This document shows positions 10,940-38,039 of a stretch of 39,757 nt of DNA, in pieces; position 1 is the stretch's first letter; each line of letters starts with the position of its first letter. The notes below the pieces were generated by a model. That model worked only from the letters and a program-made list of their open reading frames with translations, was not told the origin of the DNA and did no database searches. The stretch comes from a virus (lineage: Duplodnaviria; Caudoviricetes): the IMG/VR virus record IMGVR_UViG_3300032313_000292, positions 1 through 39,757 of that record; one strand, given 5' to 3'. The position numbers and the translations under genes are program-made.

Positions 10940-11374
10940 ATGGCGACTAAGAAGCAAAATCCTGCTGTAGCAAAACGTGTTGCTGACCGCAAAGCGTTTG
11001 TTAAAGACAAGGTTGCTTCAAAGGGCATTACAGACAAACAGGCTCGTCAACGGTTTTATGTTCAGTCTCGAATGGCTGAACTTAAAGCCGCTGGCAAAAC
11101 TGTGACTCCAGAAACACGCAAGAAACTTCAACAGAAGTTTCAGTCTGGTGATGTATCCCGTAAGGGGTTTGCTGCACCAAAGAAGAAGACTGGTGCAACA
11201 GGTAAAACTGGAACAACTGAAAAAGTTGTTTCAGTAAAAAGTGCTGTTAAAACTCCTAACAGTTCGTATATGGACCCTAAGAAACGACCTGTTGGTTTGG
11301 GCAACAAGGTTTTAAAAGGTCAACGCCCATCTAACAGTGTTTACAATAGAATTGGGCGTCAACCGGGATATTAA
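10940..11374 (+). CDS. Highly basic hypothetical protein
   Basis: Starts 2 nt after the upstream stop; Lys-rich. Confidence 0.65.
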   Translation: MATKKQNPAVAKRVADRKAFVKDKVASKGITDKQARQRFYVQSRMAELKAAGKTVTPETRKKLQQKFQSGDVSRKGFAAPKKKTGATGKTGTTEKVVSVKSAVKTPNSSYMDPKKRPVGLGNKVLKGQRPSNSVYNRIGRQPGY

Positions 11375-16001: not shown

Positions 16002-17246
16002 ATGAGCATGCAACCAAACCCTTCTGGGCAAATGGATTTCAACTCGCTGTTACCAATCCTTGCCATGTATGCCAACCGCAAAGGCGGTGGCAACTCTGGT
16101 GATTTGAGCAACATCATGAACCCAACCTTGGGTCTTTTCTCTAATTCGTACACAGCACCGTCTGAGATGTCCGATGAGGAAATTGTGAGATTGTATGCTC
16201 CACAGACTTTGGCTATTCAGGGTAGTGATGACCCAATCTCAACCTCGATTCTTGAGTACATCAACAGGGGTTATCCCGCTGTGCAGATTAAAAGAATCCT
16301 GAGCGACGGTGTATACAAGACTGGAACCTTGGATGTTGGTGACGACATTGAGGGTGGTTTGACTATGTACAACAAACTCGTTGATGACTTGTTTGCTGAA
16401 AGCAAGACTGTTGATGAGAAGCGTTATCAGATTCAGAATCAGGACACCATTTTTGAAAAGGCTGGCATGCGTAATCCGAATGAGGATTACGACCCAACAC
16501 AGTTGTTCCCAGAGGTTTTCAATCCAATGATTGACCGTCTTGCTTCAACACAAAAAGATGTTGATAAGCGTATGAAGGAAATAGACCTTGCTGCTGGAGA
16601 CCCAACTGTTTATGCTGCTCCAGATAAGCAAAGCAAAGAAGACAAACGACGCAAAGATGTTGGTATTGGTCAGGGCAATCGTTATTCTGCTGGTCTTAGG
16701 TCAATACTCAATGCAATAAGCACAGAGGGTGATGGTTCGCTGGAATCAGAATATGATTCAGACCTAGCAACAACGGCATCAAGTTTTGGTCTTTCAAAAC
16801 AACAAGTGCTTACTGGAAATTCTCCACAAGCAACTGCTGCACGTAAGGCTTATCAGCAAAGAAAAAAGTGGTCTCTTGAGGACTACGAAAAGAAACAAAA
16901 GGGTGAAGCACCAAAGGTTGATGCTCGTGCTACTGGAATGAATAAAGCGGCCATTGCATATCAGAAAGAACTTGCTGGTGCTGCAGCGCCACAGCGTACT
17001 GCCACCTTGAATGTTGCTGGATTGAAAGACCCAAACACTGGTAAAGATGTTGACATGTCTAGAGCAGTTCAGGGTTCGGTCACAAAGATTCCAACAGAGA
17101 ATCTTCGTGACCCGGTATTGCAACAACAGAAGTTAATAAATTTAGTTGCACAGAAAGTGCAGGAAGGTTTGAGAGCCAGAGGAGAAACCCCATTTAACAC
17201 AGACATGCTTAATAGGATTATTCTCAACAAAGCAATGGGTGGGTAA
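16002..17246 (+). CDS. Putative internal virion (ejection) protein
   Basis: 414-aa ORF coupled (TAATG) to the giant gene. Confidence 0.55.
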   Translation: MSMQPNPSGQMDFNSLLPILAMYANRKGGGNSGDLSNIMNPTLGLFSNSYTAPSEMSDEEIVRLYAPQTLAIQGSDDPISTSILEYINRGYPAVQIKRILSDGVYKTGTLDVGDDIEGGLTMYNKLVDDLFAESKTVDEKRYQIQNQDTIFEKAGMRNPNEDYDPTQLFPEVFNPMIDRLASTQKDVDKRMKEIDLAAGDPTVYAAPDKQSKEDKRRKDVGIGQGNRYSAGLRSILNAISTEGDGSLESEYDSDLATTASSFGLSKQQVLTGNSPQATAARKAYQQRKKWSLEDYEKKQKGEAPKVDARATGMNKAAIAYQKELAGAAAPQRTATLNVAGLKDPNTGKDVDMSRAVQGSVTKIPTENLRDPVLQQQKLINLVAQKVQEGLRARGETPFNTDMLNRIILNKAMGG

Positions 17247-20200
17247 TGGCTTCTCAGCAAGATTTGCTTTCAGCACTTCAGGGTTTATCACAACAGTCTT
17301 CAGCATCAAGGGGCCCAGCACCTGTTGCTATTGCTCCAACAACCCGTACCGCTGCACCACCTAGGGTTGGTGCTGGCGGTGCACCGAACTTGTTTGACCA
17401 AGTTGTAAAACAATCAAGCACGATGGCTTCAAATCCTCGTGACGCAAAGACTCGTACCGCAATCCGTGGCTTGGATGTGTACGCAAGAAAACAGGGTGCA
17501 AAGTATCCAAACGTTCTTGATGAGATTCAGGCTGCAAAAGAAGGTCAAATAAAACCTTCTGGCGCTCTTGGTGTTGTTGCCAACGTGTTGGACAATCCAA
17601 TTGCTAAGGCTGTGTTGAAGCCACTTGAGATTCTTGATACTGGTCGTCGTGCCATCATTTCTGGTGTTCGTGAAGTTGCAGACATCTTAGATACTGATGA
17701 AAAAACTACTGCAAGTTTTGGTGATTGGTTTGACCAGACCAAAGATGTGACTTACGGTTTTGGTACTGCTTTCCCGATGAAGGGTTGGGGTGGAAGAATT
17801 GTTGGTCTTGTCGGAGACCTTGCTCTTGACCCAATTAACTGGTTAACGCTTGGTGCAAACATTCCAAAGAGTCTTGCAACCAGAAGCGTATCGAGTGCTT
17901 TGATGAAGGGTGCTGCAATGAGTGCAGACGAACTTGCAGCAATGGGTCCTGCTGCTCTTGCAAGGATGGCTGCAGAAGAAACAGCAAGAGTTGCTGCAAC
18001 TAAAACTGGTGGTGAACTTCGTTTGCTTTTGGGTCGTAGACAAAGTGGCCGTGGTTTTGCAACCAATCTTGCCGGTCTTGCCGACAAGATGGGTGCATCA
18101 GCAGATTTGGTTCAAGACATTGCTTTGCGTGGAAGAACAGCGCTTGGAAGAACTGAAGAAGGAATCCAATTAGCAAAGAAGATTGGTCTTCCAGATGCTG
18201 GTATTTATGTGATGGGTACGCAGGTAAAGGTTCCTTTTACTGGTCCTGTTGCCGAGATGATTGAGCGTGGTCTTGTTGGTAGTCGTGTAGGAATTATGGG
18301 TAGCCGTTCAACTGAGTGGCTTGCTGAAAACTTTACGACAAAGGGAACTTCTGCTGCACGAAACATGCAACCTCTTCGTCGTGGTTTGCGTACTGGCAAG
18401 TTGGTTGTTGATGGCAAGTTGCAGAGAATGGATGCCGAACTTGCACGTTATGCAGTTCGGCTGGAGTCAATGGATAATGCTGCTCGTGCGTTAGAGGGCA
18501 TCATGATGGACACTTACGGTAAGCGTGTTGCTCCGTTCTTGCAAGAGGAAGACATTAAGGCTGCGGGCACAGAAGTGTATAAGTTCTTGGATACTCCACG
18601 GCTTAAGCCAGATGGAACAATGAACTGGGAACGCGAACTTACTGATGTTGAGCAAAGAGCGTATGACAAGATTCAGAAAATCTTCAAGGATTTTCACTCA
18701 GAGGTTGAGGCTAGATACCAGCAGGTTGACCCTAACTTCCAGATGAATTATGTGGAGAACTATCTTCCACACATGATGACAGACGAAGCACGTGATTGGT
18801 TGAATAGTCTTTCAACTCAGCGTGCTGAAGAGATTCGTCAGTACTTGAAGATAAACATGACTGACCCATCATCTTCGTTTAAGTCTCGTGGTCTTATCAA
18901 GGATGCAAACTTCTTTGGCAAGATTCTTGACGACGAGGACATGCTTAAGGGTGTTGCTGGTTTGAATGAAATAGCAAACAGGCCCGGAACTGGTTTTACT
19001 GGAAAGTTCTTTGAGACTGACATTGACAGAATCATGGCTAAGTATGGACAGCATTATGCTCAGCAGTTTGGAACTGCCGAGTTTATGCGTCTTGCTGTTG
19101 ACGGTGGAATTCTTGCAGAAGCAAAGCAGATGGGTTCGGTCACAAAGGACTGGTTGAAGTCAACTGCTGACTATGCACGTTCTGTTGAGAACGCAATGAA
19201 GAATGCTCATAGAGATATGGCTAATGCGGGCAGGGCCTCTATTAGTGCTTTCACAGAGTACATGGATGGTCTTGCTTCTAAGACTGGTGAGGCTGGTAAA
19301 GAGTTGGCTGCTTTGAAGCAGGGGCTCAAAGAAGTTGGAACACCAGAACAGCGTTTGCTCAAACTACAAGCAGCACAGAAACTTGTTGACAAGGCAATAG
19401 AGCAACAGAAGAAGGCTTGGTATAACTTCACTAAGGCACGCAATACAACGACATCGGTTATTGATGGTTTGTCTTCAATGATTGATGACTTGGATGCAGC
19501 ATGGGATGATTTGTCTAAGTCAATCAATCAGGCAATCATTGACCATCCAGCAATAATGGATGGACTGAACATGGGTCAGGGTGCTGGTGGAACACCGATT
19601 GTTTATAACGGCAAGAACTACACGTATGACGAATTGATTAAGAGTCTTGATGCAAAGCATCAGCGTGCAGCAAATGCGTTGAAAGTTCTTGAAGAAAGTT
19701 TTGAGAGAACAAAAAAACTTGACAATGTTCTTAACGGTATTGTTGAAAGTTATTTGAAGAATGATGGCATGGATGACATCATGGAGAACGTGACTCAGGC
19801 TCTTCTTCGTGAGGGAATTGAAATCCCAGATACCAAGGTGATGAACACTAGGAACATTGGAAGTGTTTGGAGCGATGGAAAAATCTCTCCAGACATGCGT
19901 GCAATCAAATCTGTTCTTGACCCAACAGGAAAAATAAAAAACACCACCTTGTCCAAGTTGACCATTGAAGAAGTTAGACGACGTGTTTCTAGTGCTGTCA
20001 CATCAGCCTCGAATCTCAGGGAGTTGCGTGAGGCTGGTGTTTGGTTGATTGTTCGTGATGCTGTGAACGACCCACAGTTTGCTTCTGCTCTTGCTAAAGA
20101 CATAAAGAACATTGGTAGCACCGTTGAAGGTGCGACTCAATCACGTTATGCAAACTTGGTTGAACTGTTGCGTCAAGCAGATGCCACAGAGCGATACATG

Positions 20201-23200
20201 TTTGACCCTTTAGTAGAAAAGGGTCAACCACCTTCTGTCATCTCGCTTCAAAACAATATTGACGATTCAGAAACAATGATTAGAGACCTGAAAGATGGTC
20301 TTGCAGATAACTCTGATGAACTTGGATATTTTGGAGAAGTGCCAGAAGAAGTTATTCTTACACGTATTGCTGAAGAAGAAGCAAAGATTACCGACTGGAA
20401 CAGAAGACTTACTAAGTTGCTTCCAAAGACAAATCAGTTTGAAGCAATTGGTATTGCAAAAGCAAACGAATTAAACGGTTTCCGTGATGTGATTGCAGAC
20501 CTTGGTGCAGGTATATCTGAGTATTACTTACATCGTGAAACATACCATCGTATGAAGTCGCTACAGGATGCTTTGGCTACAACTGGAATTATTGTTGACC
20601 AAAAAATGTACAACAAAATTCTTGCAGATGTTGCGAAACCAGAGTTGGAACAAACAATCAAATACCAACAAGGGTTGCTGGAACTAGAAGAATTTTTTAG
20701 CGGTGTTCGTACTCGTGTGAACGCTATTGGCAAGGGAACTGTTTCTGATTCTGCCAAGGCAGAAATCAGAGAAGATTTACTAAATCAAGAGTTCTCATTT
20801 CCGGAAGTGGTTGCAGTCAAACCAAAGAATCAGGTCTCTGAAGGAACCGTAATGAAGCCTACTGGTAAGACAATTACCGAGAAGGCTGGGGTATGGGGTC
20901 CAAGAAAGCAAGAACTGTTTGAGAGACAGACTCGTCGTTCACAGGACATCACTAGGTCAATCATTGTTCAGGAAGAACTGGCAAAGATTTTCCGTGTTAA
21001 GCCAGTGGGCAATCCGGGTTCTTTCCAACCAAAAGAAATTGCTACTGCTCTTCGTACACAAGAACTTATTCGTGAGCATCTTCCAGAACTAGAGGCTGTT
21101 TGGCAACGTCAAAATATTGCTACAACTGACAGACTTTTTTATCGTCATCCAGATTCAAACTATCTTGAAGAAGAAGTATTGAAACTTCTTCGCCAGTATG
21201 GCAAGAGACCAGTATGGGGCCGACCAACCAACAGGCAAGCAAGAGTAATGAGCATGCGTGGTGGCAAGTCATCGGGTAGCGAGATTCCGATGTACAAGGG
21301 TGAAGGCGTTAGTGCTGCTGGACAGTACGACAAACTTCGTGGCAATGTTCTTGCCGCAATTCAAGAGTTGAATACTGCAACAATTCCTTACACGGCTAAA
21401 AGGGTGAATCCAGTTCGTCAAAAAATAAAAGAACTTCAAGACCTTTATGAAAAAATTGTAAGAGAAACTGAAATAGACCAAAAAATTGCACAGGAAGCAG
21501 GCAAGCGTCTTACCGGCAAGGGTTCAATCAAAGACATTAACAGGACAATAAACAAAGCAATCAAGGGTGGAAAAGAATACGGCTTTTCCTCGATGCTTAA
21601 CTCTGTGTTTAGTGGAAGCGAAAGAGGAGTTGCTGATTTGTTTGCAGAACTTCTTGGTGGTCAAACATACGACTTCGCAGCAACTCGTGGTGTGCGTCAG
21701 TACAGAGATGTGCAAGTAGCCGACTCTTACTTTGGCAGACTGATGGAAAGAACATCTGGTCGTGTAAAAGGTCTTCGTGTTCTGACCGATGAAACAAGTA
21801 TTCCACTTGATGTTTTGTTGCAAGGTAATCCGGGTCACTCTGTTGGTGGTAAGTACATACCCGGTTCTTGGTTGCTCAGGACAGAGTTGCGTGGTGCTAA
21901 TGCTTCTGCAGACTTCTTGGAAGAATACGCCGATGAACTACTACGACGTATTGATGCAAAGAAAACTATCAATACTGCAGAAAGAACAGCCACCCGTGAG
22001 GTTCAGAAACTCGAAGGTCAGTTTGCTCTTCCGTTTATTGGTGAACCAAAAACTGGTAAGCCATTCACCGCAAGGTTGTCTGATGAAGTTGAGATGGAAA
22101 TACCAGACCAAGGCAGAATCATGCGTCAAAAGATTCGTGAAGAAGTAGAGAATGATGCCGTATTGCAGCAACTTGATGAGTTGGCTGCAACACCAGAATA
22201 TGCTCGTGCTGTTCGTCGTGAAGGAGAACATCGCTTTGCGATGGTTCTCGCAAAACTTGATAGTGATACTGCACGTGAACTTGGGTTCACCAGCCCAGAG
22301 TTTGAAGCACTATGGAATAACCCTCTCAAGCAGGTGAACATTGATGCTCTGCGTTCACAGTTGAAGACGCTAGAGAAGACAAGGACACGACTTGTTGGTC
22401 GTCGCAATGCGATGGTTCGTCGTTATGGAAATGAATTTGCTGCAACTAACTTGGATGTTCAACTTGAAAGAGTTGAGAACTTGCTTCTTCAGGTTGAAGA
22501 AGAAGTTCTTTCATACGATGCTTCTGGTTCTGCTCTTGAAAAGTTGTCAAGACTTTACGACAACTTCAGTAGTTTGGATGGGCAAAAAGAGATTAGTGCT
22601 GTGCTCGCAGAACAGCGTAGCGCCCCACTCAAGTTCAAGACTGGACCGGATGGGGAGATTGCTCTTGGTGCTGATGAAGCATTGCAACAGTTGTTAAATA
22701 ACTCTGGTTCACGTGCGCTCTCAACAGATGTTGATTCACGCTTGAAGTATTTGCAGAAGGCAAGACTTGCAAGCGATGAGTACAAGACTCTCAAGGGATA
22801 CAAAGATATTGAGCAGACTTTGAACTTCAAGATGCAGAGAGAGTGGGCTAACCAGCGCTCTAACGTTTTGGCTTTCCAAGACAGAATCCGTTCAAAGGTT
22901 GACTCGCTTCGTGGTCGAAACATTGAAGAAGAAGCAAACATTGCAAGACTTGAGCAACAGATTCTTGATGAACTTGAACCAACAGGATTGAAGACTCGTG
23001 CTACTGGTGGTGCAAAACTTGCTACAGAAGCAAAGACTCTTTCAGAGTCGTTGCGTACACGACCAAAAGAACCTATTGCTGGTGCAGAGTGGGAAGGTCT
23101 TTCACCTGCAGAGATTGAAGCAAAACTTGGTGGCATGGGTGTTGAGACTGGTCCGACTAGAGAGGGCAAGTTCTTTAGGGCTGACTCTGGGACCATTGAG

Positions 23201-25234
23201 GCTGGAACAACACCAGCACAAATCGAGATTGCAGCACAGAAATCCAAGCAAGATGAAATCTTTGGATTGATTGAAGGTTTGAAGTTCAAGAAGATTGTTG
23301 AAGAGGGTCGTGAGAAAGAAGCAATTGATTCACTTGCGAAGATGACCAACCAACAACGCTCAATAATTGCTAACAGGATGAAGGCTGTTCGTCAGTTGGA
23401 AGATGCAAGAAAAGTTCAATGGAAACTTGACGCTGGTAAGGATAAGAGGAAGTTGCTTGGTGCTGTTACGAAGCGTCGTTCAGAACTTGCTTCTGCACAG
23501 GAGACAGTAAAGGGTGCACAGCAGGCTTACGATAGTGCTGTTGAGTTTGCTGAGTGGGCACCAGAGGCTCTTGAAGATGCACGCAATACGGTCACATCTC
23601 TGAAGGACTTGGCAATTGAGGGTCGTAAGGTCAAAGCAAAAATCAATCAGAGTAATACTGCATGGAACGCTGAAGTAAACAAGTTCATTGAGGATGCTTC
23701 CGGTCTTCTTAACAGTATTGATGGTGATGACATACCGAACAGTATTCGTTCTGTCATTACTGATTACACCAACAAGCAGGCAGAGTACTTCAAGCAGTCT
23801 GCAAGATTGACTGAAGCACAAGAAGAACTGATGCTCGCTAAAGGTCTCAAGGGTCGCAGTTGGATTGCCGGTAGTGATGTTACTGGCAAAGTTGATAGAA
23901 GAGCACCTATTGGGTTCCGTGACCAGATACCAGAAGATGCATACGAAATTGTTCCAATCTTCGACAAGGGCTTTGTTCAACTCAGCAAGTACTTCCCAAC
24001 TATTGGTGTAAGGCAAGAGTTGGCATCAATTGTTCAGAGCGTTCACAGACTGAACGAGCCACAGGTTGTTCGTGAGATGAACAGGTTCATTGGTAAGTAC
24101 ACACGCTTCTTCAAAGCGTATGCAACTTTGTCGCCGGGATTCCATGCACGAAACGCAATGTCAAACTCATTTATGATATTTGCTGCAGGTGCAAAGTTGA
24201 AGTGGATGAACGAAGGTCTTGATATGAGTAGGTCTTGGCTTGCCGCTTCACGTGAATCAAAGACTGTTGACCAGTGGATTGCTTCGCTATCTGCAGACAT
24301 GCAGGTAAAAGCAAGGACTGCAATGGATGCATTCTTTGCATCTGGTGGCGGTATGTCAACGGACTTCTTTGATATTAGTCGTGTGCCTCGTGGAACAAAG
24401 AGGTCAAAAGAACTTGGTAAGTGGGTTGAAAACCATTCCCGTTTTGTGCTCGCATGGGATGGTGTTTCACAAGGGCTAGACATGAATGCAGCGTCTACAC
24501 GGGTAAGAAAGTATCTGATTGACTACGCAGACGTTTCAACTGGCGACCAACTGATGCGCCAGATTGTTCCGTTCTGGATGTGGACAAGTCGCAACCTTCC
24601 GTTGCAACTTGGAAACATGTGGCTCAATCCAAAGGCTTACGCCATCTACAACACCATCAAACGAAACGTTGATGATGAAGAAGAAGGCGCTATTGTTCCA
24701 CAGTGGATGAGAGAGATTGGTGCATTCAAGTTGCCATTCGGAAACAACCTGTATGCAACACCAGACTTCGGATTCAATCGTGTTGGTCAGCAGGTTCAAG
24801 AGTTGTCAGACCCACAGCGTTTGTTGTCAAACGTCAACCCTTTGATTCGAGTCCCACTTGAGTTGATGGGTGGTAGGCAGTTGTACAACAACCGTCAGTT
24901 CTCCGACAAACCAGTTGAGGTGGGTAATGGTGCTGGAGCAATCCTGCAACCATTCCTTGCTGCAGCAGGTTATGGAGAAACACGAGATGGAAAACAGTTT
25001 GTTGATGACAAGGCTTACTACGCAGTACGAAACTTGATTCCATTCCTTGGAACAGCAGAACGATTGACACCATCAATTGACACATATCAACAACGTGGAT
25101 ATGTGAACCCACTACTCGGATTCCTTGGTGTTCCGGGTCGTCAAGTCAAGGAACAGGAAATTCAATCTGAACTTGCAAGACGAAAAGGCAACATAGCAAA
25201 AATAACATCACGAGAGAAAGCATTCGGTGAATAA
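17246..25234 (+). CDS. Giant internal virion/DNA-ejection protein (2662 aa)
   Basis: Last and largest virion gene; DLALDP.NW N-terminal motif; C-terminal DY......R.IVPFW.W..RNLP resembling LPD38-type domains. Confidence 0.7.
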   Translation: MASQQDLLSALQGLSQQSSASRGPAPVAIAPTTRTAAPPRVGAGGAPNLFDQVVKQSSTMASNPRDAKTRTAIRGLDVYARKQGAKYPNVLDEIQAAKEGQIKPSGALGVVANVLDNPIAKAVLKPLEILDTGRRAIISGVREVADILDTDEKTTASFGDWFDQTKDVTYGFGTAFPMKGWGGRIVGLVGDLALDPINWLTLGANIPKSLATRSVSSALMKGAAMSADELAAMGPAALARMAAEETARVAATKTGGELRLLLGRRQSGRGFATNLAGLADKMGASADLVQDIALRGRTALGRTEEGIQLAKKIGLPDAGIYVMGTQVKVPFTGPVAEMIERGLVGSRVGIMGSRSTEWLAENFTTKGTSAARNMQPLRRGLRTGKLVVDGKLQRMDAELARYAVRLESMDNAARALEGIMMDTYGKRVAPFLQEEDIKAAGTEVYKFLDTPRLKPDGTMNWERELTDVEQRAYDKIQKIFKDFHSEVEARYQQVDPNFQMNYVENYLPHMMTDEARDWLNSLSTQRAEEIRQYLKINMTDPSSSFKSRGLIKDANFFGKILDDEDMLKGVAGLNEIANRPGTGFTGKFFETDIDRIMAKYGQHYAQQFGTAEFMRLAVDGGILAEAKQMGSVTKDWLKSTADYARSVENAMKNAHRDMANAGRASISAFTEYMDGLASKTGEAGKELAALKQGLKEVGTPEQRLLKLQAAQKLVDKAIEQQKKAWYNFTKARNTTTSVIDGLSSMIDDLDAAWDDLSKSINQAIIDHPAIMDGLNMGQGAGGTPIVYNGKNYTYDELIKSLDAKHQRAANALKVLEESFERTKKLDNVLNGIVESYLKNDGMDDIMENVTQALLREGIEIPDTKVMNTRNIGSVWSDGKISPDMRAIKSVLDPTGKIKNTTLSKLTIEEVRRRVSSAVTSASNLRELREAGVWLIVRDAVNDPQFASALAKDIKNIGSTVEGATQSRYANLVELLRQADATERYMFDPLVEKGQPPSVISLQNNIDDSETMIRDLKDGLADNSDELGYFGEVPEEVILTRIAEEEAKITDWNRRLTKLLPKTNQFEAIGIAKANELNGFRDVIADLGAGISEYYLHRETYHRMKSLQDALATTGIIVDQKMYNKILADVAKPELEQTIKYQQGLLELEEFFSGVRTRVNAIGKGTVSDSAKAEIREDLLNQEFSFPEVVAVKPKNQVSEGTVMKPTGKTITEKAGVWGPRKQELFERQTRRSQDITRSIIVQEELAKIFRVKPVGNPGSFQPKEIATALRTQELIREHLPELEAVWQRQNIATTDRLFYRHPDSNYLEEEVLKLLRQYGKRPVWGRPTNRQARVMSMRGGKSSGSEIPMYKGEGVSAAGQYDKLRGNVLAAIQELNTATIPYTAKRVNPVRQKIKELQDLYEKIVRETEIDQKIAQEAGKRLTGKGSIKDINRTINKAIKGGKEYGFSSMLNSVFSGSERGVADLFAELLGGQTYDFAATRGVRQYRDVQVADSYFGRLMERTSGRVKGLRVLTDETSIPLDVLLQGNPGHSVGGKYIPGSWLLRTELRGANASADFLEEYADELLRRIDAKKTINTAERTATREVQKLEGQFALPFIGEPKTGKPFTARLSDEVEMEIPDQGRIMRQKIREEVENDAVLQQLDELAATPEYARAVRREGEHRFAMVLAKLDSDTARELGFTSPEFEALWNNPLKQVNIDALRSQLKTLEKTRTRLVGRRNAMVRRYGNEFAATNLDVQLERVENLLLQVEEEVLSYDASGSALEKLSRLYDNFSSLDGQKEISAVLAEQRSAPLKFKTGPDGEIALGADEALQQLLNNSGSRALSTDVDSRLKYLQKARLASDEYKTLKGYKDIEQTLNFKMQREWANQRSNVLAFQDRIRSKVDSLRGRNIEEEANIARLEQQILDELEPTGLKTRATGGAKLATEAKTLSESLRTRPKEPIAGAEWEGLSPAEIEAKLGGMGVETGPTREGKFFRADSGTIEAGTTPAQIEIAAQKSKQDEIFGLIEGLKFKKIVEEGREKEAIDSLAKMTNQQRSIIANRMKAVRQLEDARKVQWKLDAGKDKRKLLGAVTKRRSELASAQETVKGAQQAYDSAVEFAEWAPEALEDARNTVTSLKDLAIEGRKVKAKINQSNTAWNAEVNKFIEDASGLLNSIDGDDIPNSIRSVITDYTNKQAEYFKQSARLTEAQEELMLAKGLKGRSWIAGSDVTGKVDRRAPIGFRDQIPEDAYEIVPIFDKGFVQLSKYFPTIGVRQELASIVQSVHRLNEPQVVREMNRFIGKYTRFFKAYATLSPGFHARNAMSNSFMIFAAGAKLKWMNEGLDMSRSWLAASRESKTVDQWIASLSADMQVKARTAMDAFFASGGGMSTDFFDISRVPRGTKRSKELGKWVENHSRFVLAWDGVSQGLDMNAASTRVRKYLIDYADVSTGDQLMRQIVPFWMWTSRNLPLQLGNMWLNPKAYAIYNTIKRNVDDEEEGAIVPQWMREIGAFKLPFGNNLYATPDFGFNRVGQQVQELSDPQRLLSNVNPLIRVPLELMGGRQLYNNRQFSDKPVEVGNGAGAILQPFLAAAGYGETRDGKQFVDDKAYYAVRNLIPFLGTAERLTPSIDTYQQRGYVNPLLGFLGVPGRQVKEQEIQSELARRKGNIAKITSREKAFGE

Positions 25235-31116: not shown

Positions 31117-31138
31117 AACTGATATTGAAGTATCAGTT
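31117..31138. repeat. 22-bp palindrome copy 1: AACTGATA-TTGAAG-TATCAGTT
   Basis: Read directly; 2 nt after the stop of the SLT gene. Confidence 0.9.
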
Positions 31139-31140
31139 TT

Positions 31141-31560
31141 TTACAGACCCCACGGACCAAATCCGTTGTCATATCGGGCTTCTGCATAGTTGTGAATAGC
31201 AAGTGCTGCTCTCAGGTTGCGGTAAGGACCGAACAGCCCCTCAGAACGGCTTACAATGCCTCTAGAAGCCAACCACGGTGTCCAGAAGCCATTGATTTGC
31301 ACCAATCCTCTTGAACCACCCATTGGGTCTTCGGTGTTGTGAGCGCCTGTGTTGCATCGGCTTTCTCTCCACATCAGATAATCCAGTGTTGGTAGAAGTG
31401 ACGGTTTCCACCCTGCATCAACAGCGGTTTGCCACCACTGAGGACAACGGGCAGAGGCAGAAATTTCGACCGGCTCTGGAACATCGTGCTTGGTAAAAGA
31501 AGTGGGGGGCACGAAGCCCCCCACACCTAATGAAATTGAGATAAGTATTTTTGCTATCAA
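31141..31560 (-). CDS. Secreted lytic transglycosylase (SLT-like)
   Basis: Hydrophobic N-terminus, RESRC catalytic Glu, GLVQIN, NL.AA and PW motifs. Confidence 0.8.
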   Translation of the reverse strand: MIAKILISISLGVGGFVPPTSFTKHDVPEPVEISASARCPQWWQTAVDAGWKPSLLPTLDYLMWRESRCNTGAHNTEDPMGGSRGLVQINGFWTPWLASRGIVSRSEGLFGPYRNLRAALAIHNYAEARYDNGFGPWGL

Positions 31561-31785
31561 CTATTCCCCCCTTAGTGCTTCCAATAAAACATCTTCCATC
31601 TCGCCTTTGGCGGATAGAAGTTCTTCCAACTCTGCATGAGTTGAGTCGGCTCTCCGACCATCACCTAGACGCTGGGTTTTCTTTGCCAGTTGGTCTACGC
31701 CGATAGCGAGAGACTTGACGACAGCACGTAACTCAGAGAGAGTTAGTGTCACCTCAAGGGTTGGTTCTTCTTTGCGATTACTCAC
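31561..31785 (-). CDS. Hypothetical protein
   Basis: GTGA overlap with the upstream gene; helical. Confidence 0.6.
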   Translation of the reverse strand: MSNRKEEPTLEVTLTLSELRAVVKSLAIGVDQLAKKTQRLGDGRRADSTHAELEELLSAKGEMEDVLLEALRGE

Positions 31786-32315
31786 GGTAGTTGCCTTTCA
31801 TTCTGTTTTGTTGATGAGACCTTCAATGCACGAACGACATCGTACAAGTCTTGCATGGCACTTGCTAATGAGCCCATTGCGTTACCTTCGTCGTATGTAA
31901 CGCTTTCTTCATCCGTAAATCGGATAGAAGAGCCCATTTTTCCGTTGTGCATCATTGTCATGAGACGCACACGCCTACGCTCAGGGTGTTGTGATGGTGC
32001 AACTTCGTTGTTGTCATCATTGTCTTTGTCAATGGGTGCAGCCCAACCCGTAGTCACAACAGCAAAGCCGTTGTAACCAGAGTCAAACAACAAGACGGCA
32101 TTGAGTGTGTCGTCAAGCATTTCGTAGATGTCTGCATGTTCTGCAATCAATCTGATTGCTGGCACTTCACCACGAACATAATCAACGGCAAATAACTTTG
32201 CTGTTGATGACTCGAATGGTGTTGATGTCATGCTCTCTATCTTTGTTGCAACAGCATGGTCAATCTCTTGCAGAGTTTGTCCAAACTTTTCTGAATAGTT
32301 GATTGGTGTGTTCAT
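31782..32315 (-). CDS. Hypothetical protein
   Basis: ATGA coupling with whiB; GWAAP...PSQHPERRRVRL motif. Confidence 0.7.
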   Translation of the reverse strand: MNTPINYSEKFGQTLQEIDHAVATKIESMTSTPFESSTAKLFAVDYVRGEVPAIRLIAEHADIYEMLDDTLNAVLLFDSGYNGFAVVTTGWAAPIDKDNDDNNEVAPSQHPERRRVRLMTMMHNGKMGSSIRFTDEESVTYDEGNAMGSLASAMQDLYDVVRALKVSSTKQNERQLP

Positions 32316-32563
32316 TTCTTTTTATTCTTTCTGTAGTCGGCTTTGCCGTTTGTTAGTGTGATACCACCCCAAATGCCCCATGAATTGGTTGCTTTACCGT
32401 AGGCAAGGCACTCAACTTTCATGGAACATTCAGAGCAAATTGCTTTTGCTTGCTTCCATTCTTTCATTTTCTGTTTTGTAGGTGGCCATTCTGGAAACCA
32501 CCACACAGTTGGTTGGGACTTACACTTTGCTCTAGTGAAGTCTATCGTCACAGGCTCAAACAT
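32312..32563 (-). CDS. whiB: WhiB-family Fe-S transcription factor
   Basis: C-x(n)-FP...AKAICSEC-x5-C...GIWGG. Confidence 0.9.
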   Translation of the reverse strand: MFEPVTIDFTRAKCKSQPTVWWFPEWPPTKQKMKEWKQAKAICSECSMKVECLAYGKATNSWGIWGGITLTNGKADYRKNKKK

Positions 32564-33089
32564 CTGAACCTGCTGTCAATCGGTTCTGAATAACCTTGAG
32601 TACTTTCTCTGCAATCTCGTTAGAAAGATTGCTGGTCATTGACTCAACTTTCTCATTGACCAATTCTCTAACGAATGATGCGCTCACTGTTTCACCAATG
32701 TTCACCTGTACTTGATTGTTCACCATGTTTCTGAAACGGTTGTTGCTCATGAGGTGGCGAAGAAACGCTTCGTTCTCCCACAATGGTGCTGTCAAGTCAA
32801 TGAGTTGCTGATAATCAAGGTTGCTACCAACCTCACTAACTATCTGTGAGTAGTCAATGCTTTCCAAGACCCAGTTACGCACCTTGCGTGTAAAGTCCCG
32901 GCTCTCCTCAAGATATGAGGACACAGACTCAACAACATTGTCGTGACTTGGAATGCGACCATCTACTTGACGGGTCACTTCCTGAATAATGGTTGTTTCC
33001 ATTGACTGACTGAACAATGATGGCATTGAGGCACTGTCTACAGATACCTCAAATTCCATTGTTGATGGGATTAGTTTGATTGTTGTCAT
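32556..33089 (-). CDS. Hypothetical helical protein
   Basis: AAGGAG SD with a CA-rich leader. Confidence 0.7.
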   Translation of the reverse strand: MTTIKLIPSTMEFEVSVDSASMPSLFSQSMETTIIQEVTRQVDGRIPSHDNVVESVSSYLEESRDFTRKVRNWVLESIDYSQIVSEVGSNLDYQQLIDLTAPLWENEAFLRHLMSNNRFRNMVNNQVQVNIGETVSASFVRELVNEKVESMTSNLSNEIAEKVLKVIQNRLTAGSDV

Positions 33090-33235
33090 TTGCTTTCTCC
33101 TTGTGTGTTTGTTTCTGTTTTGAGTGAATCGGGAATGAGGTCATCAAACGTGACCTCATTCAGACGGATATTGTTTTGTGCAAAGCCACGCTGAAATGCG
33201 TTCAGGTAGTATGCGTATCTTTCTTCTTGGTTCAT
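33086..33235 (-). CDS. Small hypothetical protein (49 aa; not in the ORF track)
   Basis: GGAGG SD; MNQEERYAYYLNAFQRGFAQ...; ATGA coupling. Confidence 0.6.
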   Translation of the reverse strand: MNQEERYAYYLNAFQRGFAQNNIRLNEVTFDDLIPDSLKTETNTQGESK

Positions 33236-33242
33236 GTTCCTC

Positions 33243-34247
33243 CTAGTTGTAACTTGGGTGTGTTGTTGTTTGTGGAACGACTACAGCATTTGCTGCATAG
33301 ATGTCTTCATTGAATGCTTCAACGTCATACACCTGATAGATGGCAGACCAACAAGCACATGGATACTGTGCACCACAGAAGTGGCATGCACCGCACTCAT
33401 CACAATGAGTTTCCATCACACCCTCTGGTGTTTTGTGTGCGTGAGCACAGTTGTAACACTCAATGAGTTGTGTTGTGTCGTCAATGTGAGTAGTGAACAC
33501 CTCAAACTGTTGCATCTGCTCTTCTGCTAGATACTCAAGTTCGTCATCATAATCAGGAATGATTAGACCATTGTCTTTCTTATCCCATGATGATGCATAC
33601 GAAGTCTTGCCGTATCCATAATCCCAATCGTCGTAACCCCAAAGACTGCCACTTGATTTGTATGAAGTGCCAGCGTAAGGCTTGTAAGTCACAGCCTCGT
33701 ATGAATAGTTAGACCACCACATATCTTTATCCCAGTGACCAGACTTCTCATTGAGTATGTACCAGTCTTGCTTGGCTTCATCATTAGTGGTGAGGAATAC
33801 CAACTTGGAACCAGTAGCCCATGCTTCTAGTTTCTTGTAGTACTCATCATCATCAAGTGAAGTAATGCCACCAACGCTAGGCATGATGTCTTGTGCAAAC
33901 ACTTTTGTGTCCGAACGAGTATCGCCCTTTGGTATGGCAACTGGAAGTATGCCGTTGTGACCAACGACTGATTGGTTGTCTTTACCCAAGAAGAATGGGT
34001 GACAATTAGAAACAGTCTCACTGCCGTGAGTTGCCCAACGGAAGTGAAACACAGCAGGCCCTTGATGTGTGCGACGCAAGTCCGTGAACTTGTTTGCAAC
34101 TTCATCGAAGTTCATGCTGTGGCAAGTCACAATGGTCTTGCCTGTTGATATTGCGAAACCAAACCCGTCAGGGTTTGCGGTCGCCGCAACTTTGAACCTG
34201 TCCATGTCTGGTGAGACATAATCAGGAATGAATGTTAGTAAACACAT
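33243..34247 (-). CDS. Class II (Ntn) glutamine amidotransferase with Cys-rich C-terminal domain
   Basis: N-terminal Met-Cys, NPDGFG, HFRWATHG, NCHPF, HNG and SDT motifs. Confidence 0.9.
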   Translation of the reverse strand: MCLLTFIPDYVSPDMDRFKVAATANPDGFGFAISTGKTIVTCHSMNFDEVANKFTDLRRTHQGPAVFHFRWATHGSETVSNCHPFFLGKDNQSVVGHNGILPVAIPKGDTRSDTKVFAQDIMPSVGGITSLDDDEYYKKLEAWATGSKLVFLTTNDEAKQDWYILNEKSGHWDKDMWWSNYSYEAVTYKPYAGTSYKSSGSLWGYDDWDYGYGKTSYASSWDKKDNGLIIPDYDDELEYLAEEQMQQFEVFTTHIDDTTQLIECYNCAHAHKTPEGVMETHCDECGACHFCGAQYPCACWSAIYQVYDVEAFNEDIYAANAVVVPQTTTHPSYN

Positions 34248-34285
34248 ATTGTGTTCCTTTCTTGTTTGTTGTTTGTGTGATTAGA

Positions 34286-34307
34286 AACTGATACTGGAGT
34301 ATCAGTT
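34286..34307. repeat. 22-bp palindrome copy 2: AACTGATA-CTGGAG-TATCAGTT
   Basis: Contains the TGA stop of amidoligase A. Confidence 0.9.
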
Positions 34308-35363
34308 GTCATTGGTGATTGTTGTAGTGACGGAATCGCAACGCTCAGCGAGGCGATTAGACAGAATGGCATAACGCTCTTGTGTGGCAACCCATGAACG
34401 GAATGAACGGAACGCCAAAGCATTACCAGACATAACTTTCTGAGTGTCACACTCTGTCTCGGTGTAGTTGAAGACTGCATCACAGAACTGCAACGCAGAC
34501 TGCACAGTCTTGGGATTGAGTGATGGCTTGAAGAAACGCAACTCAACTGTGTGGCGGTTCTGCAAATTGACAGCGCAGTAACGATTGTCGTTGCGACTTT
34601 CGTTCTTTGCATGCTTCATCAACGATGAATTGGTACGAGTGACATAGTTGCCATCGTCGTTGTACTCATTCCACGCATTGAGGAAATAACCCTTGTCAAA
34701 GTTAGCCCAACGCTCACTATCACGACCTGCGAAACGCTTCACATCTGTTGCGTTATCAAGTATCAACTTGAAGAACTTGAACAAATGCTTTTCGTCTTTG
34801 AATGCAGAGCGTGACAAGTGAACATGCAGACCACAAGTGCCTGTGTCCCACGACTTGCAACCTTTCTTGATAAGACCAGATATGCCAGCCCAATCAAAGT
34901 GTTCCATTGCAAAGCCCAATGTCATCGGATGCGAAACAATCTCGAATCCATGTTCCAATGAACCATCTTCCTTGAGATAAACAATGTCGTTGCTCTGCGT
35001 GTTGATTGTGTCAAGCACGAAACGTGCACAATCCTCACGAGGGAAACGACCTGTCTCCAACTCCAACTCAAAGCCCATGTACAACGATGTACGGTTCAAT
35101 GATGTTGTCTGGTCAATGACTGTTGCATAATACGATTTATGCCCGTCATCATTGAGGAATATCGCAGTTGGTTTAGCAGAGTAAGACAGAATCAACTCTG
35201 ACTCGTCGTTCTGTTGCTCTTCCATTTCGCAGACGAAATCCTCATTGCAACCGCAACAGCGATAAGCGCTGTCCCAATCGTTACTGTAGGCATCATCTTC
35301 TTCCATTGTTTCACCACAGTTGTGGCACTCAATGTATGTTGGTTCTTCTTCACTTGCAGGCAT
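34302..35363 (-). CDS. Putative amidoligase A (COOH-NH2 ligase fold, Amidoligase_2-like) with N-terminal Zn finger
   Basis: MGFELELE, DGSL..GFEIVSHP, CGLHVH, RYCAVN and TVELR motifs; N-terminal CHNC...CCGC. Confidence 0.85.
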   Translation of the reverse strand: MPASEEEPTYIECHNCGETMEEDDAYSNDWDSAYRCCGCNEDFVCEMEEQQNDESELILSYSAKPTAIFLNDDGHKSYYATVIDQTTSLNRTSLYMGFELELETGRFPREDCARFVLDTINTQSNDIVYLKEDGSLEHGFEIVSHPMTLGFAMEHFDWAGISGLIKKGCKSWDTGTCGLHVHLSRSAFKDEKHLFKFFKLILDNATDVKRFAGRDSERWANFDKGYFLNAWNEYNDDGNYVTRTNSSLMKHAKNESRNDNRYCAVNLQNRHTVELRFFKPSLNPKTVQSALQFCDAVFNYTETECDTQKVMSGNALAFRSFRSWVATQERYAILSNRLAERCDSVTTTITNDN

Positions 35364-35463
35364 GATTAGCCCTTTCTATGTTTGTTGTTTGTATCTCATA
35401 ACTTTTGTCATGAGCGAGAATGCACCAATGCATGGGGAACACTGATGCACTCTCGCCCACGCA

Positions 35464-35485
35464 AACTGATACCGCAGTATCAGTT
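35464..35485. repeat. 22-bp palindrome copy 3: AACTGATA-CCGCAG-TATCAGTT
   Basis: 14 nt downstream of the stop at 35500. Confidence 0.9.
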
Positions 35486-35499
35486 TGTATGAGCGTTGT

Positions 35500-35676
35500 T
35501 CACGCTGATTGCTCTGCGTGCACATCACCTGATTTACGCAATGCAAACAGTAGTAGTTTGTGTTGGTAATCTCGTTCTTCTTGTGACTGATTGTATGCCT
35601 TGACCATCTTCCATGCAAACTCAACGAGTTCGTCTTTCTTCATTGCATACAACGCTGTCTTACTTGTCTTATTCAT
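35500..35676 (-). CDS. Small hypothetical protein (58 aa; not in the ORF track)
   Basis: GGAG SD; MNKTSKTALYAMKKDELVEFAW...; overlaps the upstream stop. Confidence 0.6.
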   Translation of the reverse strand: MNKTSKTALYAMKKDELVEFAWKMVKAYNQSQEERDYQHKLLLFALRKSGDVHAEQSA

Positions 35677-35821
35677 TTACGCTCTCCATTTCTTTCGTTA
35701 GTTCTGCAATTTGCTTGAGCAGACGCTTGTTCTCTTCTTGCAACAACTGAATATCAGTCTCTGCATTATCTAATGTTGCTCTGATTTGCTTGAGTTGCAT
35801 CTTGATGTAACTACTTGTCAT
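35669..35821 (-). CDS. Small coiled-coil protein (50 aa; not in the ORF track)
   Basis: AAGGAG SD, ATGA coupling, heptad pattern. Confidence 0.65.
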   Translation of the reverse strand: MTSSYIKMQLKQIRATLDNAETDIQLLQEENKRLLKQIAELTKEMESVNE

Positions 35822-36624
35822 TTCTGTTCTCCTTTTGTTTTTTCTTGTGTGTCTAACATGTATTGCATGTAAGTTAGAATTTGACCCTTTGTAGGCACTG
35901 GCTCAAAGCAACGAACCTCAACAGTATTTCTGTGCAATAAGTTCACTGCACAGTATCTACCAATACTGTCATCTGGGTTGGAACTTCTTGTTGCACAATA
36001 ACGGTGTTCAGGTGCAAAGAAACTATCGACCGCTAATCTTTGGAACATTTTCACATCAGCAACGATTGCGTCAGCAAATCTTTGCGTATGTGCTTCATCA
36101 ACAAATGAAGCCCTGTTGATATGAATATGAAAACCACGCTCACCAATTCCATTGACCTTGAAATCTGATTTGATTATCGGGCTAGTCCAACCCCAGTTGA
36201 AATGATTTTCGTAGTAGAAGAATGTCGCAGGTTGCGAAATAATTTCGAATCCTTGTTCCAACGAACCATCTCGCTTGCACATCACATCTTCCGTGTAAGA
36301 AAGAATATTTGCAGCGAGTTCTTCCGACTCAAGTGCATGAGGTGTTCGCTTGCTTGCTTCTAATTCCAACTCAAACCCCATAACAGGTGTCTCCGTGCCA
36401 TAAGCAAATGGTGAATCGCCATTGTTGTGATACAGACGCATTCTGTCGTGGATACCGTGACCAAACTTGAATTCTTTGCTGAAACTACTTGAGTATGGGC
36501 GAAGAACACTGAGTTCGTCACGTGCAAAATCTTCCAACTCTTGAAGAAGTTCATGCTTTGATAATTCGTCAGCATTGTTGATTAGGTGGATAAAACTACG
36601 CAAAATTGCTACTTGATTATTCAT
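35818..36624 (-). CDS. Putative amidoligase B (paralogue of 34302-35363)
   Basis: MGFELELE, KRDGSLEQGFEIISQP, GFHIH, RYCAVNL and TVEVR motifs. Confidence 0.85.
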   Translation of the reverse strand: MNNQVAILRSFIHLINNADELSKHELLQELEDFARDELSVLRPYSSSFSKEFKFGHGIHDRMRLYHNNGDSPFAYGTETPVMGFELELEASKRTPHALESEELAANILSYTEDVMCKRDGSLEQGFEIISQPATFFYYENHFNWGWTSPIIKSDFKVNGIGERGFHIHINRASFVDEAHTQRFADAIVADVKMFQRLAVDSFFAPEHRYCATRSSNPDDSIGRYCAVNLLHRNTVEVRCFEPVPTKGQILTYMQYMLDTQEKTKGEQK

Positions 36625-36666
36625 GTCTGTTTCTCTTTTCTGTTTGTGTGTTTGTTTGTGTACGAA

Positions 36667-36688
36667 AACTGATACCGCAGTATCAGTT
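36667..36688. repeat. 22-bp palindrome copy 4: AACTGATA-CCGCAG-TATCAGTT
   Basis: Contains the TGA stop of 36683-36922. Confidence 0.9.
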
Positions 36689-36922
36689 CCAGTCCTTTAG
36701 TTCCCATGTCTTTGGGTCTAGTTCCCATTCTCCACCCAAATAAACATTATTCGTTGGGTGATTACGCTTAGACCAATTCTGATTTTCCATTTCCAAACGG
36801 TCAAGCCATTCTTTGCTCATTGTCCAATCTTTCTCGGCTTTCTCGTAGCCATACTCAAATGCGAAGCCCCAAACTGCAAGCACCACAATCATTCCCATAG
36901 TAAATAACCCGAACCAATTCAT
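36683..36922 (-). CDS. Small N-terminally anchored membrane protein
   Basis: AAGGAG SD before ATG 36922; MNWFGLFTMGMIVVLAVWGFAF TM segment. Confidence 0.7.
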   Translation of the reverse strand: MNWFGLFTMGMIVVLAVWGFAFEYGYEKAEKDWTMSKEWLDRLEMENQNWSKRNHPTNNVYLGGEWELDPKTWELKDWN

Positions 36923-37025
36923 AACTATCTCCTTGTTTGTTGTTTGTTTAGTCCACTTGTGTGAACATGACGCAACACTATGCAGGGGGCTACACAATGT
37001 TGCGGTAACTCACACAGAGTTACGC

Positions 37026-37047
37026 AACTGATATCGCAGTATCAGTT
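37026..37047. repeat. 22-bp palindrome copy 5: AACTGATA-TCGCAG-TATCAGTT
   Basis: Overlaps the TAA stop of 37046-37492. Confidence 0.9.
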
Positions 37048-37492
37048 ATTTTGCTTCAAGCATCTTGAGCAGTTGAGCCTTTGTGTACTTCTTGGCTTCA
37101 CGCTTAGCATCAAATTGCTTCTTCTTGCTTGTCTTTGCACGCTGTCCGTCACCAGCAACCATTGCCTTGAGGCTATTCCATGATGCAGTTGCATACTCAA
37201 GTTCGCAAGCACGAATTGCACCAGCCATAGTGCCGTACTTGTTGATGAGTTTCATGCCAGCCGTAACATTCTGGCGGATAGTGTTGTCTGACCAGCGAGC
37301 CTCACCAGCGTTTAGCGGTGAGATACTTGCACTTGCATACTTGCTTGCGTCAATGCCCAATCGCATTGCTTCAAGTGATGCACCGAACCAACCTTCAATG
37401 ACAGTTTCACTGCCTTGCTTTATTTTCTGACTGTGAACAGTCATGAAATTGGTGCGGATAGTTTTCTTGCTTGCTTGCTTTGATGTTGCCAT
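37046..37492 (-). CDS. First early-arm gene; basic helical hypothetical protein
   Basis: AAGGAG SD and CA-rich leader before ATG 37492. Confidence 0.75.
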   Translation of the reverse strand: MATSKQASKKTIRTNFMTVHSQKIKQGSETVIEGWFGASLEAMRLGIDASKYASASISPLNAGEARWSDNTIRQNVTAGMKLINKYGTMAGAIRACELEYATASWNSLKAMVAGDGQRAKTSKKKQFDAKREAKKYTKAQLLKMLEAK

Positions 37493-37563
37493 GATGGCTC
37501 TCCTTGTGTTTGTATTTGTGTTAGTCGGTAACACGCCGAGTGATTACTCACTAGAGAACACAC

Positions 37564-37585
37564 AACTGATACCGCAATATCAGTT
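37564..37585. repeat. 22-bp palindrome copy 6: AACTGATA-CCGCAA-TATCAGTT
   Basis: Upstream of the first early gene, embedded in a longer hairpin. Confidence 0.9.
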
Positions 37586-38039
37586 ATGTATTCGTACTAA
37601 GTAATTACTAATCGCAACGACAACCGAACACGCCATGCTCAACGCAAGCCCATGCGATTGCTCTAATAGTTTCTTTAGTAATTGGTTCGCCACGCTTTAT
37701 GAGTAGCACCATTGCATCAACTTCTTCGTCACTCATTATTGTTCCGTCTTCATATTGCACAGACATATGTTCTCCGTTTGTTTATGTATGACTCGCCATG
37801 TTTGGCGTGCCTCTTACAACAAGTGTGGGGTCGGATTTGTGAAACGGGCTTGTTGCGAATAAGGCTCGTTTCATTGGGCTTTTGCGTGCACAGGACACAG
37901 GGGAGGGTGGGCCCCCCCGGCACCCAGCGAATAAAAGGATGGCGATAAGACAGAGCCGTACAACTAATTTTCTAAAAAGGGGGTGGGGATAGAAGAAAAG
38001 GGTACCTTTTCCTTATATAATATAGGTTTTATTCTATTT

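Follow-up and report, generated by a model that had tools for sequence, protein, structure and literature searches.

The window analysed here, i.e., the whole stretch of DNA under study, is an entire viral contig of 39,757 nt (IMG/VR record IMGVR_UViG_3300032313_000292, Caudoviricetes) whose + strand carries the genes for the terminase, the portal and the major head protein. Its − strand arm encodes an amidoligase, a GATase, WhiB, SLT, a PD-(D/E)XK nuclease, the DnaB helicase, a primase and a sigma region-4 protein; WhiB points to an actinobacterial host (Actinomycetota), and this early arm is found mostly in lake or freshwater metagenomes. Six 22-bp palindromes, each comprising two 8-bp arms around a 6-bp core, are dispersed along the early arm, and the gene for a 148-residue protein, a candidate regulator, is flanked by two of them. 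The features in question are as follows (the palindromes have no strand):

37564–37585: site 1, which precedes the regulator gene; its core reads TTGCGG on the − strand; orthologous variants in relatives
37046–37492, − strand: regulator gene, encoding a 148-residue basic all-helical protein, the candidate binder; helices 49–56 and 69–86; conserved SxYA and S-x-x-T-I-R-Q motifs
37026–37047: site 2, overlapping the stop codon of the regulator gene
36667–36688: site 3, containing the stop codon of a small upstream open reading frame (ORF); absent in relatives L118 and L119
35464–35485: site 4, upstream of the amidoligase gene; tops an extended stem, 35454–35495
34286–34307: site 5, which contains the stop codon of the amidoligase gene and precedes the GATase gene
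31117–31138: site 6, between the SLT gene and the PD-(D/E)XK nuclease and replication genes
37543–37605, − strand: long hairpin with site 1 as its top; 26 predicted pairs with an internal loop; covariation in the 18 of them that lie outside the arms, with many G-U pairs on the mRNA strand

All six sites have exact arms. A scan of the genome at up to three mismatches gave one further match, in coding sequence at 11215, and shuffled sequences gave a mean of 0.22 and a maximum of 2 matches to the 8-6-8 pattern at the same threshold. The genome has 12 occurrences of the 8-bp half-site, every one within the six sites, among which there are five different cores. The scan and the shuffles confirmed the six copies and their cores as reported in the original prediction, which had also placed five sites on or close to − strand stop codons, three of them overlapping. 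The distances agree: the stop codon lies inside sites 5 and 3, overlaps site 2, and is 2 nt from site 6 and 14 nt from site 4. When the longest upstream frame was followed in 17 genomes, its stop began at site offset −1 or +3 in 33 of 73 sites. Site 1 had been described as preceding the first early gene; it does lie upstream of 37046–37492, but a 52-codon ORF (37608–37766) is located 22 nt upstream of the site, so that 37046–37492 is strictly speaking not the first. As to the CA-rich leader said to follow each site, a G/C-rich stretch comes first at site 6.

The relatives were collected by an exact-pattern scan with fixed arms (108 loci; 20 contigs with at least two copies) and by a second sampling free of the arm sequence, in which 47 loci were fetched via the GATase protein. 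In relatives, both arms are altered symmetrically at nearly all copies of a genome: among the GATase-fetched loci, the arms are AACTGAGA in L110, L112, L113 and L116, AACTCATA in L127 and AGTTGATA in L129–L135. The core families are likewise phage-specific and symmetric: phages of the window type have YYNNRR, L108 has mostly GA..TC, the cores of L151 consist of A/T only, and L046 has CTTGCG; cores are identical within each of the L129–L135 genomes and differ within most others. At least six site types were found among related phages. The invariant arms noted at the outset hold inside the window genome but not across relatives, and the premise that the arms do not covary was wrong, because they change on both sides, in all copies together, and with the protein. 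Moreover, the sites are exchanged as 22-bp alleles inside near-identical flanks. For instance, the flanks of site 6 are 95% and 100% identical between the window and L108, yet four of the six core bases differ, and the flank trees at sites 4 and 5 intermix genomes with GATA and GAGA arms. One genome, L146 (around 769, 1562 and 2664), has spacers of either 6 or 7 bp separating GATA from TATC.

The regulator gene keeps its position relative to the sites, site 2 lying on its stop codon in most relatives, and the family comprises 66 clusters at 50% identity. The better structure model (predicted local distance difference test, pLDDT, 88.9) is all-helical, with helices 16–45, 49–56 and 69–86. The majority residues among 68 aligned rows are Y52 (65), A53 (58), T71 (62), I72 (52), R73 (49) and Q74 (41), and the pattern of helices and residues is reminiscent of a helix-turn-helix. 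A likeness of the S-x-x-T-x-x-x-Y motif to the core-binding part of tyrosine recombinases was unsupported, with no such family or fold among the matches listed.

The co-occurrence of protein and sites was assessed in 37 of the 46 GATase loci, those with at least 4.4 kb upstream (nine short loci were dropped, and several near-duplicate genomes are included). The results were fully concordant: 21 of the 37 loci carry the protein and at least four sites, the other 16 lack the protein and have a single site at most, and none is discordant. In the loci with neither, the amidoligase and GATase genes are mostly closely coupled, with no site between them.

The type of the sites also follows the type of the protein. 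At the adjacent site, all eight T74 proteins go with GAGA arms and all 24 Q/L/N74 proteins with GATA arms; five alignment columns (13, 15, 67, 74 and 115) separate these two groups equally, 67 and 74 being at or in helix 69–86. Since linkage could explain the two gene-flanking sites, only the non-flanking ones were scored further. At these, the arm type fits T74 vs. non-T74 in 59 of 63 cases from 22 genomes, as compared to a mean of 37.8 upon label shuffling (p 0.00024, a permutation that ignores the kinship of the genomes). The cores follow as well: YYNNRR was found in 24 of 24 non-flanking GATA sites of Q74-N75 phages vs. 1 of 19 elsewhere. In a further test, a scan for AACTCATA arms yielded one new multi-copy contig, L198, whose homologue has S73, while R73 and GATA arms are found together in its relative L122; the two proteins (148 and 145 residues) share 89 identities and differ further at 68, 69, 76, 78 and 79. 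Arginine reading G and glutamine reading A are textbook contacts. Overall, the site changes appear to track residues 73–74 in what is predicted to be a helix-turn-helix-like motif, with exceptions, and the correspondence is suggestive. The protein 37046–37492 had been proposed among the candidate binders, and both the co-occurrence and the covariation speak for it.

These data bear directly on whether a host factor could occupy the sites, the link to the phage protein being mere hitchhiking. The GATA arm is common to many divergent phages and mosaic genomes do exist, as such an explanation would have it. On the other hand, sites up to 6 kb from the regulator gene switch with the gene while their flanks do not, and the sites are missing in relatives that lack the gene; we therefore regard a host factor as very unlikely. 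Of the two cognates first envisaged, an unannotated phage protein gains support and a host factor is disfavoured.

Taken together, the results suggest that the six palindromes are probably operators of the phage's own 148-residue protein, which would repress the long early operon. Judged from sequence comparison, its binding to the sites on DNA is the firmer part of this proposal and may be called likely; that it represses is put forward with somewhat less assurance, as the more probable mode of action. The 148-residue protein may best be read as a member of a new family of phage-encoded regulators. Several observations weigh against this reading. The regulator has no profile match in Pfam, PHROG or PDB, Foldseek found nothing with its model, and the best hits of a structure aligner reached Z-scores of 4.4 and 4.8, none being 5 or above. 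KorB, ParB, SopB and Spo0J appear at Z 3.0–3.6 amid unrelated helical chains, and an Atlas match to DUF3102 at 0.89 is a lead only. As to the covariation, the GAGA proteins fall into two clades at an open fork and thus stand for only one or two events, and in L111, L162 and L185 a total of four distal sites do not fit their regulators; these genomes are either recombinants or assembly chimeras. The residue code has exceptions too: L167 (A73) and L029 (E73) retain G5, which is why we treat the code as suggestive only, and L74 and N74 proteins retain T7. Finally, some features point to RNA: along the mRNA, most cores keep one orientation, and several resemble UNCG loops, for neither of which a purely symmetric DNA site has a need; and the stem at site 1 has 18 pairs outside the arms, 95.7% paired and 10 with two-sided changes among 17 sequences, a score reached in none of 500 shuffles. 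L182, like L111, L162 and L185, has distant sites of another type than its own regulator, and may likewise be a recombinant in transition or an assembly chimera.

The latter features raise the alternative that an RNA hairpin is the working form, i.e., that the palindromes are stems of the RNase III type which process or stabilise the early transcript, the 148-residue protein binding RNA. Such processing stems are known in the T7 early region. Besides the covarying flank stem at site 1, the predicted fold of each of the six site regions is better than that of shuffled sequences (z −2.0 to −5.2), site 4 folds as an extended stem, and cores such as CTGCGG and CTTCGG are UNCG-type loops in mRNA orientation. 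However, the stem is extended by no more than 29 of 105 flank pairs, T74 phages combine cores lacking a closing pair with a C-C mismatch that recurs at arm position 3, the cores of L151 are A/T-only, and Rfam gave no match for the sites. The left and right half-sites share one consensus that reaches into the core, AACTGATAYY or AACTGAGAYA. Unpaired arm positions number 34 in 114 sites, 25 of them neither G-U nor A-C, and all are confined to positions 1–3, apart from two chance coding matches. Inverted cores are tolerated at orthologous sites (TTGCGG/CCGCAA at site 1, CTGCAA/TTGCAG at site 6). The shared half-site consensus, outer mismatches and inverted cores favour a symmetric double-stranded site, in line with the protein site on DNA of two-fold symmetry that was originally inferred and that the symmetric arm changes and the covariation with the protein also support. 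Compensatory changes in the arms, once named as a sign of an RNA hairpin, were indeed seen, yet they involve all copies and the protein together, which fits an operator better, and a stem of the RNA type is found in the flanks of site 1. An RNA hairpin as the working form is therefore unlikely; we take the stem to be a second layer, at the level of RNA, present at site 1 and probably also at site 4, possibly with processing of the RNase III type.

Other folds were noted near the sites. A second long hairpin with a pyrimidine-rich loop comes right after site 4 (35416–35454, − strand); stems like it with changed sequence occur in L151, L171, L127 and L198, and it is a possible processing site or small RNA. 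At 36999–37028 (− strand), an RNA-predicted hairpin includes the end of site 2's right arm, in competition with folding of the palindrome. No universal loop rule, be it UNCG or GNA, holds among the relatives.

The explanation first favoured was that the palindromes are tyrosine-recombinase core sites exchanging accessory cassettes. The inverted 8-bp arms, the 6-bp spacer and the intergenic positions are as would be anticipated for such sites. Partner sites of tyrosine recombinases need matching spacers; the cores do match within the L129–L135 genomes but differ within most others. Among 11 relatives aligned, 48 breaks of at least 100 bp with 96 ends were scored, and no end falls inside a site; nine lie within 30 bp, and the three within 10 bp are all at the 3′ end of the regulator gene (site 2). 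Accessory gene gains and losses recur instead at junctions of ribosome-binding site and start codon near 36922, 36620, 35836 and 33100, and site 3 was lost in L118 and L119 through deletions with neither end at a site. In four DNA runs, one of which (X1) may be the source of the window, none of the 15 joints listed links two sites, although these are contigs, which drop rare forms. No integrase family was matched among 22 proteins scanned with Pfam and 36 with PHROG, small ORFs of the virion arm and host enzymes being outside the scan, and the model of the 148-residue protein is all-helical. The cassette exchange is thereby largely refuted, and we hold it to be most improbable, even more so than a host factor. 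A repeated gene end reading GDK was seen in L001 and L077.

Another possibility is that the protein, once bound to the sites on DNA, serves to activate transcription or to organise the DNA, in a partition-like or entry role, instead of repressing. The leader and ribosome-binding site after each site and the weak fold rows of the ParB/KorB type, together with the DUF3102 lead, are compatible with such roles. Against them, TANNNT was not found at a fixed offset, no offset having it in more than 3 of 73 sites, sigma-70-like promoters were not enriched at the sites (6 vs. 11.7, by consensus scan only), and no ParA family was matched among the proteins scanned with Pfam and PHROG. Activation or organisation thus has a small chance, comparable to that of the RNA hairpin. 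A promoter at each site was also considered, and consensus scans found none.

Under the preferred reading, in which the sites are operators, each of them would be bound by the 148-residue protein as a two-fold symmetric complex. Helix 69–86 would read the inner arm bases, with R73 facing arm position 5 and Q74 position 7, and other residues would set the symmetric core preference. The bound protein could then act as an elongation roadblock within one long early transcript; a roadblock is the simplest form because there is no promoter consensus at the sites and many of them lie on stop codons. In this way, the regulator would restrain expression of its own gene, which has sites 1 and 2 on either side, and the downstream early genes would be stepped down as far as the replication block. 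It may also silence co-infecting phages of the same type, as suggested by the rapid switching of specificity among near-identical phages, and the six or more site types among relatives likewise suggest conflict between phages.

Proteins bound to DNA are reported to halt RNA polymerase ahead of a stop codon and to set off trans-translation, LacI being cited (PMC13584721). By analogy, the sites on stop codons could act likewise, but their overlap is equally well explained by tight packing with a stop-bearing arm. In its boldest form, the proposal would be that the new regulator family defines immunity groups of non-integrating freshwater actinophages, in which RNA polymerase is blocked at stop-codon operators, the products of stopless messages are tagged for destruction, and phages escape one another through a change of one recognition helix and six operators together; we consider this a doubtful extension.

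Several known systems invite comparison. In Cluster A mycobacteriophages, the stoperators of the repressor are dispersed and proposed to stop elongation, repressor and stoperator motif diverge together among relatives (PMC6550527; PMC9283540), and mixed immunity is seen (PMC6550527). The system described here shares the dispersed sites, a candidate single phage protein and a motif diverging with it, and the operator of stoperator type, at first a mere alternative, is now backed by the covariation of site and protein. It differs in having six symmetric 22-bp sites rather than asymmetric 13-bp ones read by a monomer in temperate phages, a protein without a family match and a phage without a recognised integrase. 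The nearest unsolved parallel is the 7-3-7 palindromic repeats of Cluster O, which are present in 34 copies, have arms invariant across the cluster, are proposed to be dimer sites, show some indels between repeats and have no cognate protein identified in the source (PMC4351075). Common to both are palindromic repeats that cluster in the leftward accessory region of a non-integrating actinophage (PMC4351075), but the present sites have a candidate protein with which they covary, and breakpoints keep clear of them.

Palindromic operators and repression, the latter proposed here, are also features of KorB and its OB operators in plasmid RK2 (PMC11790492). KorB has a CTP-binding clamp domain (PMC11790492), whereas no such domain was recognised in the 148 residues of our protein, and the fold match to KorB was not significant (1r71: Z 3.6, root mean square deviation 3.5, 75 aligned). 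MrpR of phage SPbeta is a master repressor whose element, SPBRE, is likewise repeated across the phage genome, but it has a tyrosine-recombinase fold and maintains lysogeny (PMC10516654); no such fold is among the matches listed here. The PeSL cassettes of T4-type phages are repeated stem-loop elements between variable early genes, but they include a promoter and a terminator, undergo shuffling and form mini-circles (PMC2839356), while the present sites are devoid of promoters (by consensus scans) and of breakpoints. The array works like those of stoperators, KorB or MrpR and, by the tests run, is a member of none. No description of the motif or the protein was found in the literature searched, whose scope excluded supplements and subscription papers; the regulator had no match in annotated phages, and word-pattern-limited scans of GTDB genomes gave no prophage or host copies of regulator or GATase relatives.

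An unannotated phage protein family hence gains a testable function and a candidate cognate site. Protein variants paired in nature with their operators (Q74, T74, S73 and several core types) form a series that may serve for studying a specificity switch at all six sites simultaneously. Should repression act between phages, it would amount to immunity-like competition in lake phages without a recognised integrase. For the Cluster O repeats, the route would be to seek a covarying early protein.

Relatives without a recognised regulator carry other palindromes at similar positions, GTGTAAGA-CNG-TCTTACAC in L141 and AATAAGA-YGG-TCTTATT in L148, located as follows:

L141, 1431–1449, 2637–2655 and 4752–4770: other palindromes
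L148, 1229–1245 and 1698–1714: other palindromes

One of them again lies at the stop codon of a different basic protein of 140–150 residues. We do not claim the L141 and L148 proteins as homologues of the regulator family (profile probability 1–2%); palindromes and protein constitute either a parallel or a very distant system.

As for the neighbouring genes, the closest annotated relatives of the amidoligase (34302–35363, − strand) are about 30% identical, Mycobacterium phages such as Marvin accounting for 19 of 24 records. The 268-residue ORF at 35818–36624 (− strand) has amidoligase-like motifs, matches two unnamed PHROGs and no Pfam family, and is possibly a diverged second copy of the 34302–35363 gene. 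The 2662-residue protein encoded at 17246–25234 (+ strand), which has no PHROG match, is probably an internal virion protein.

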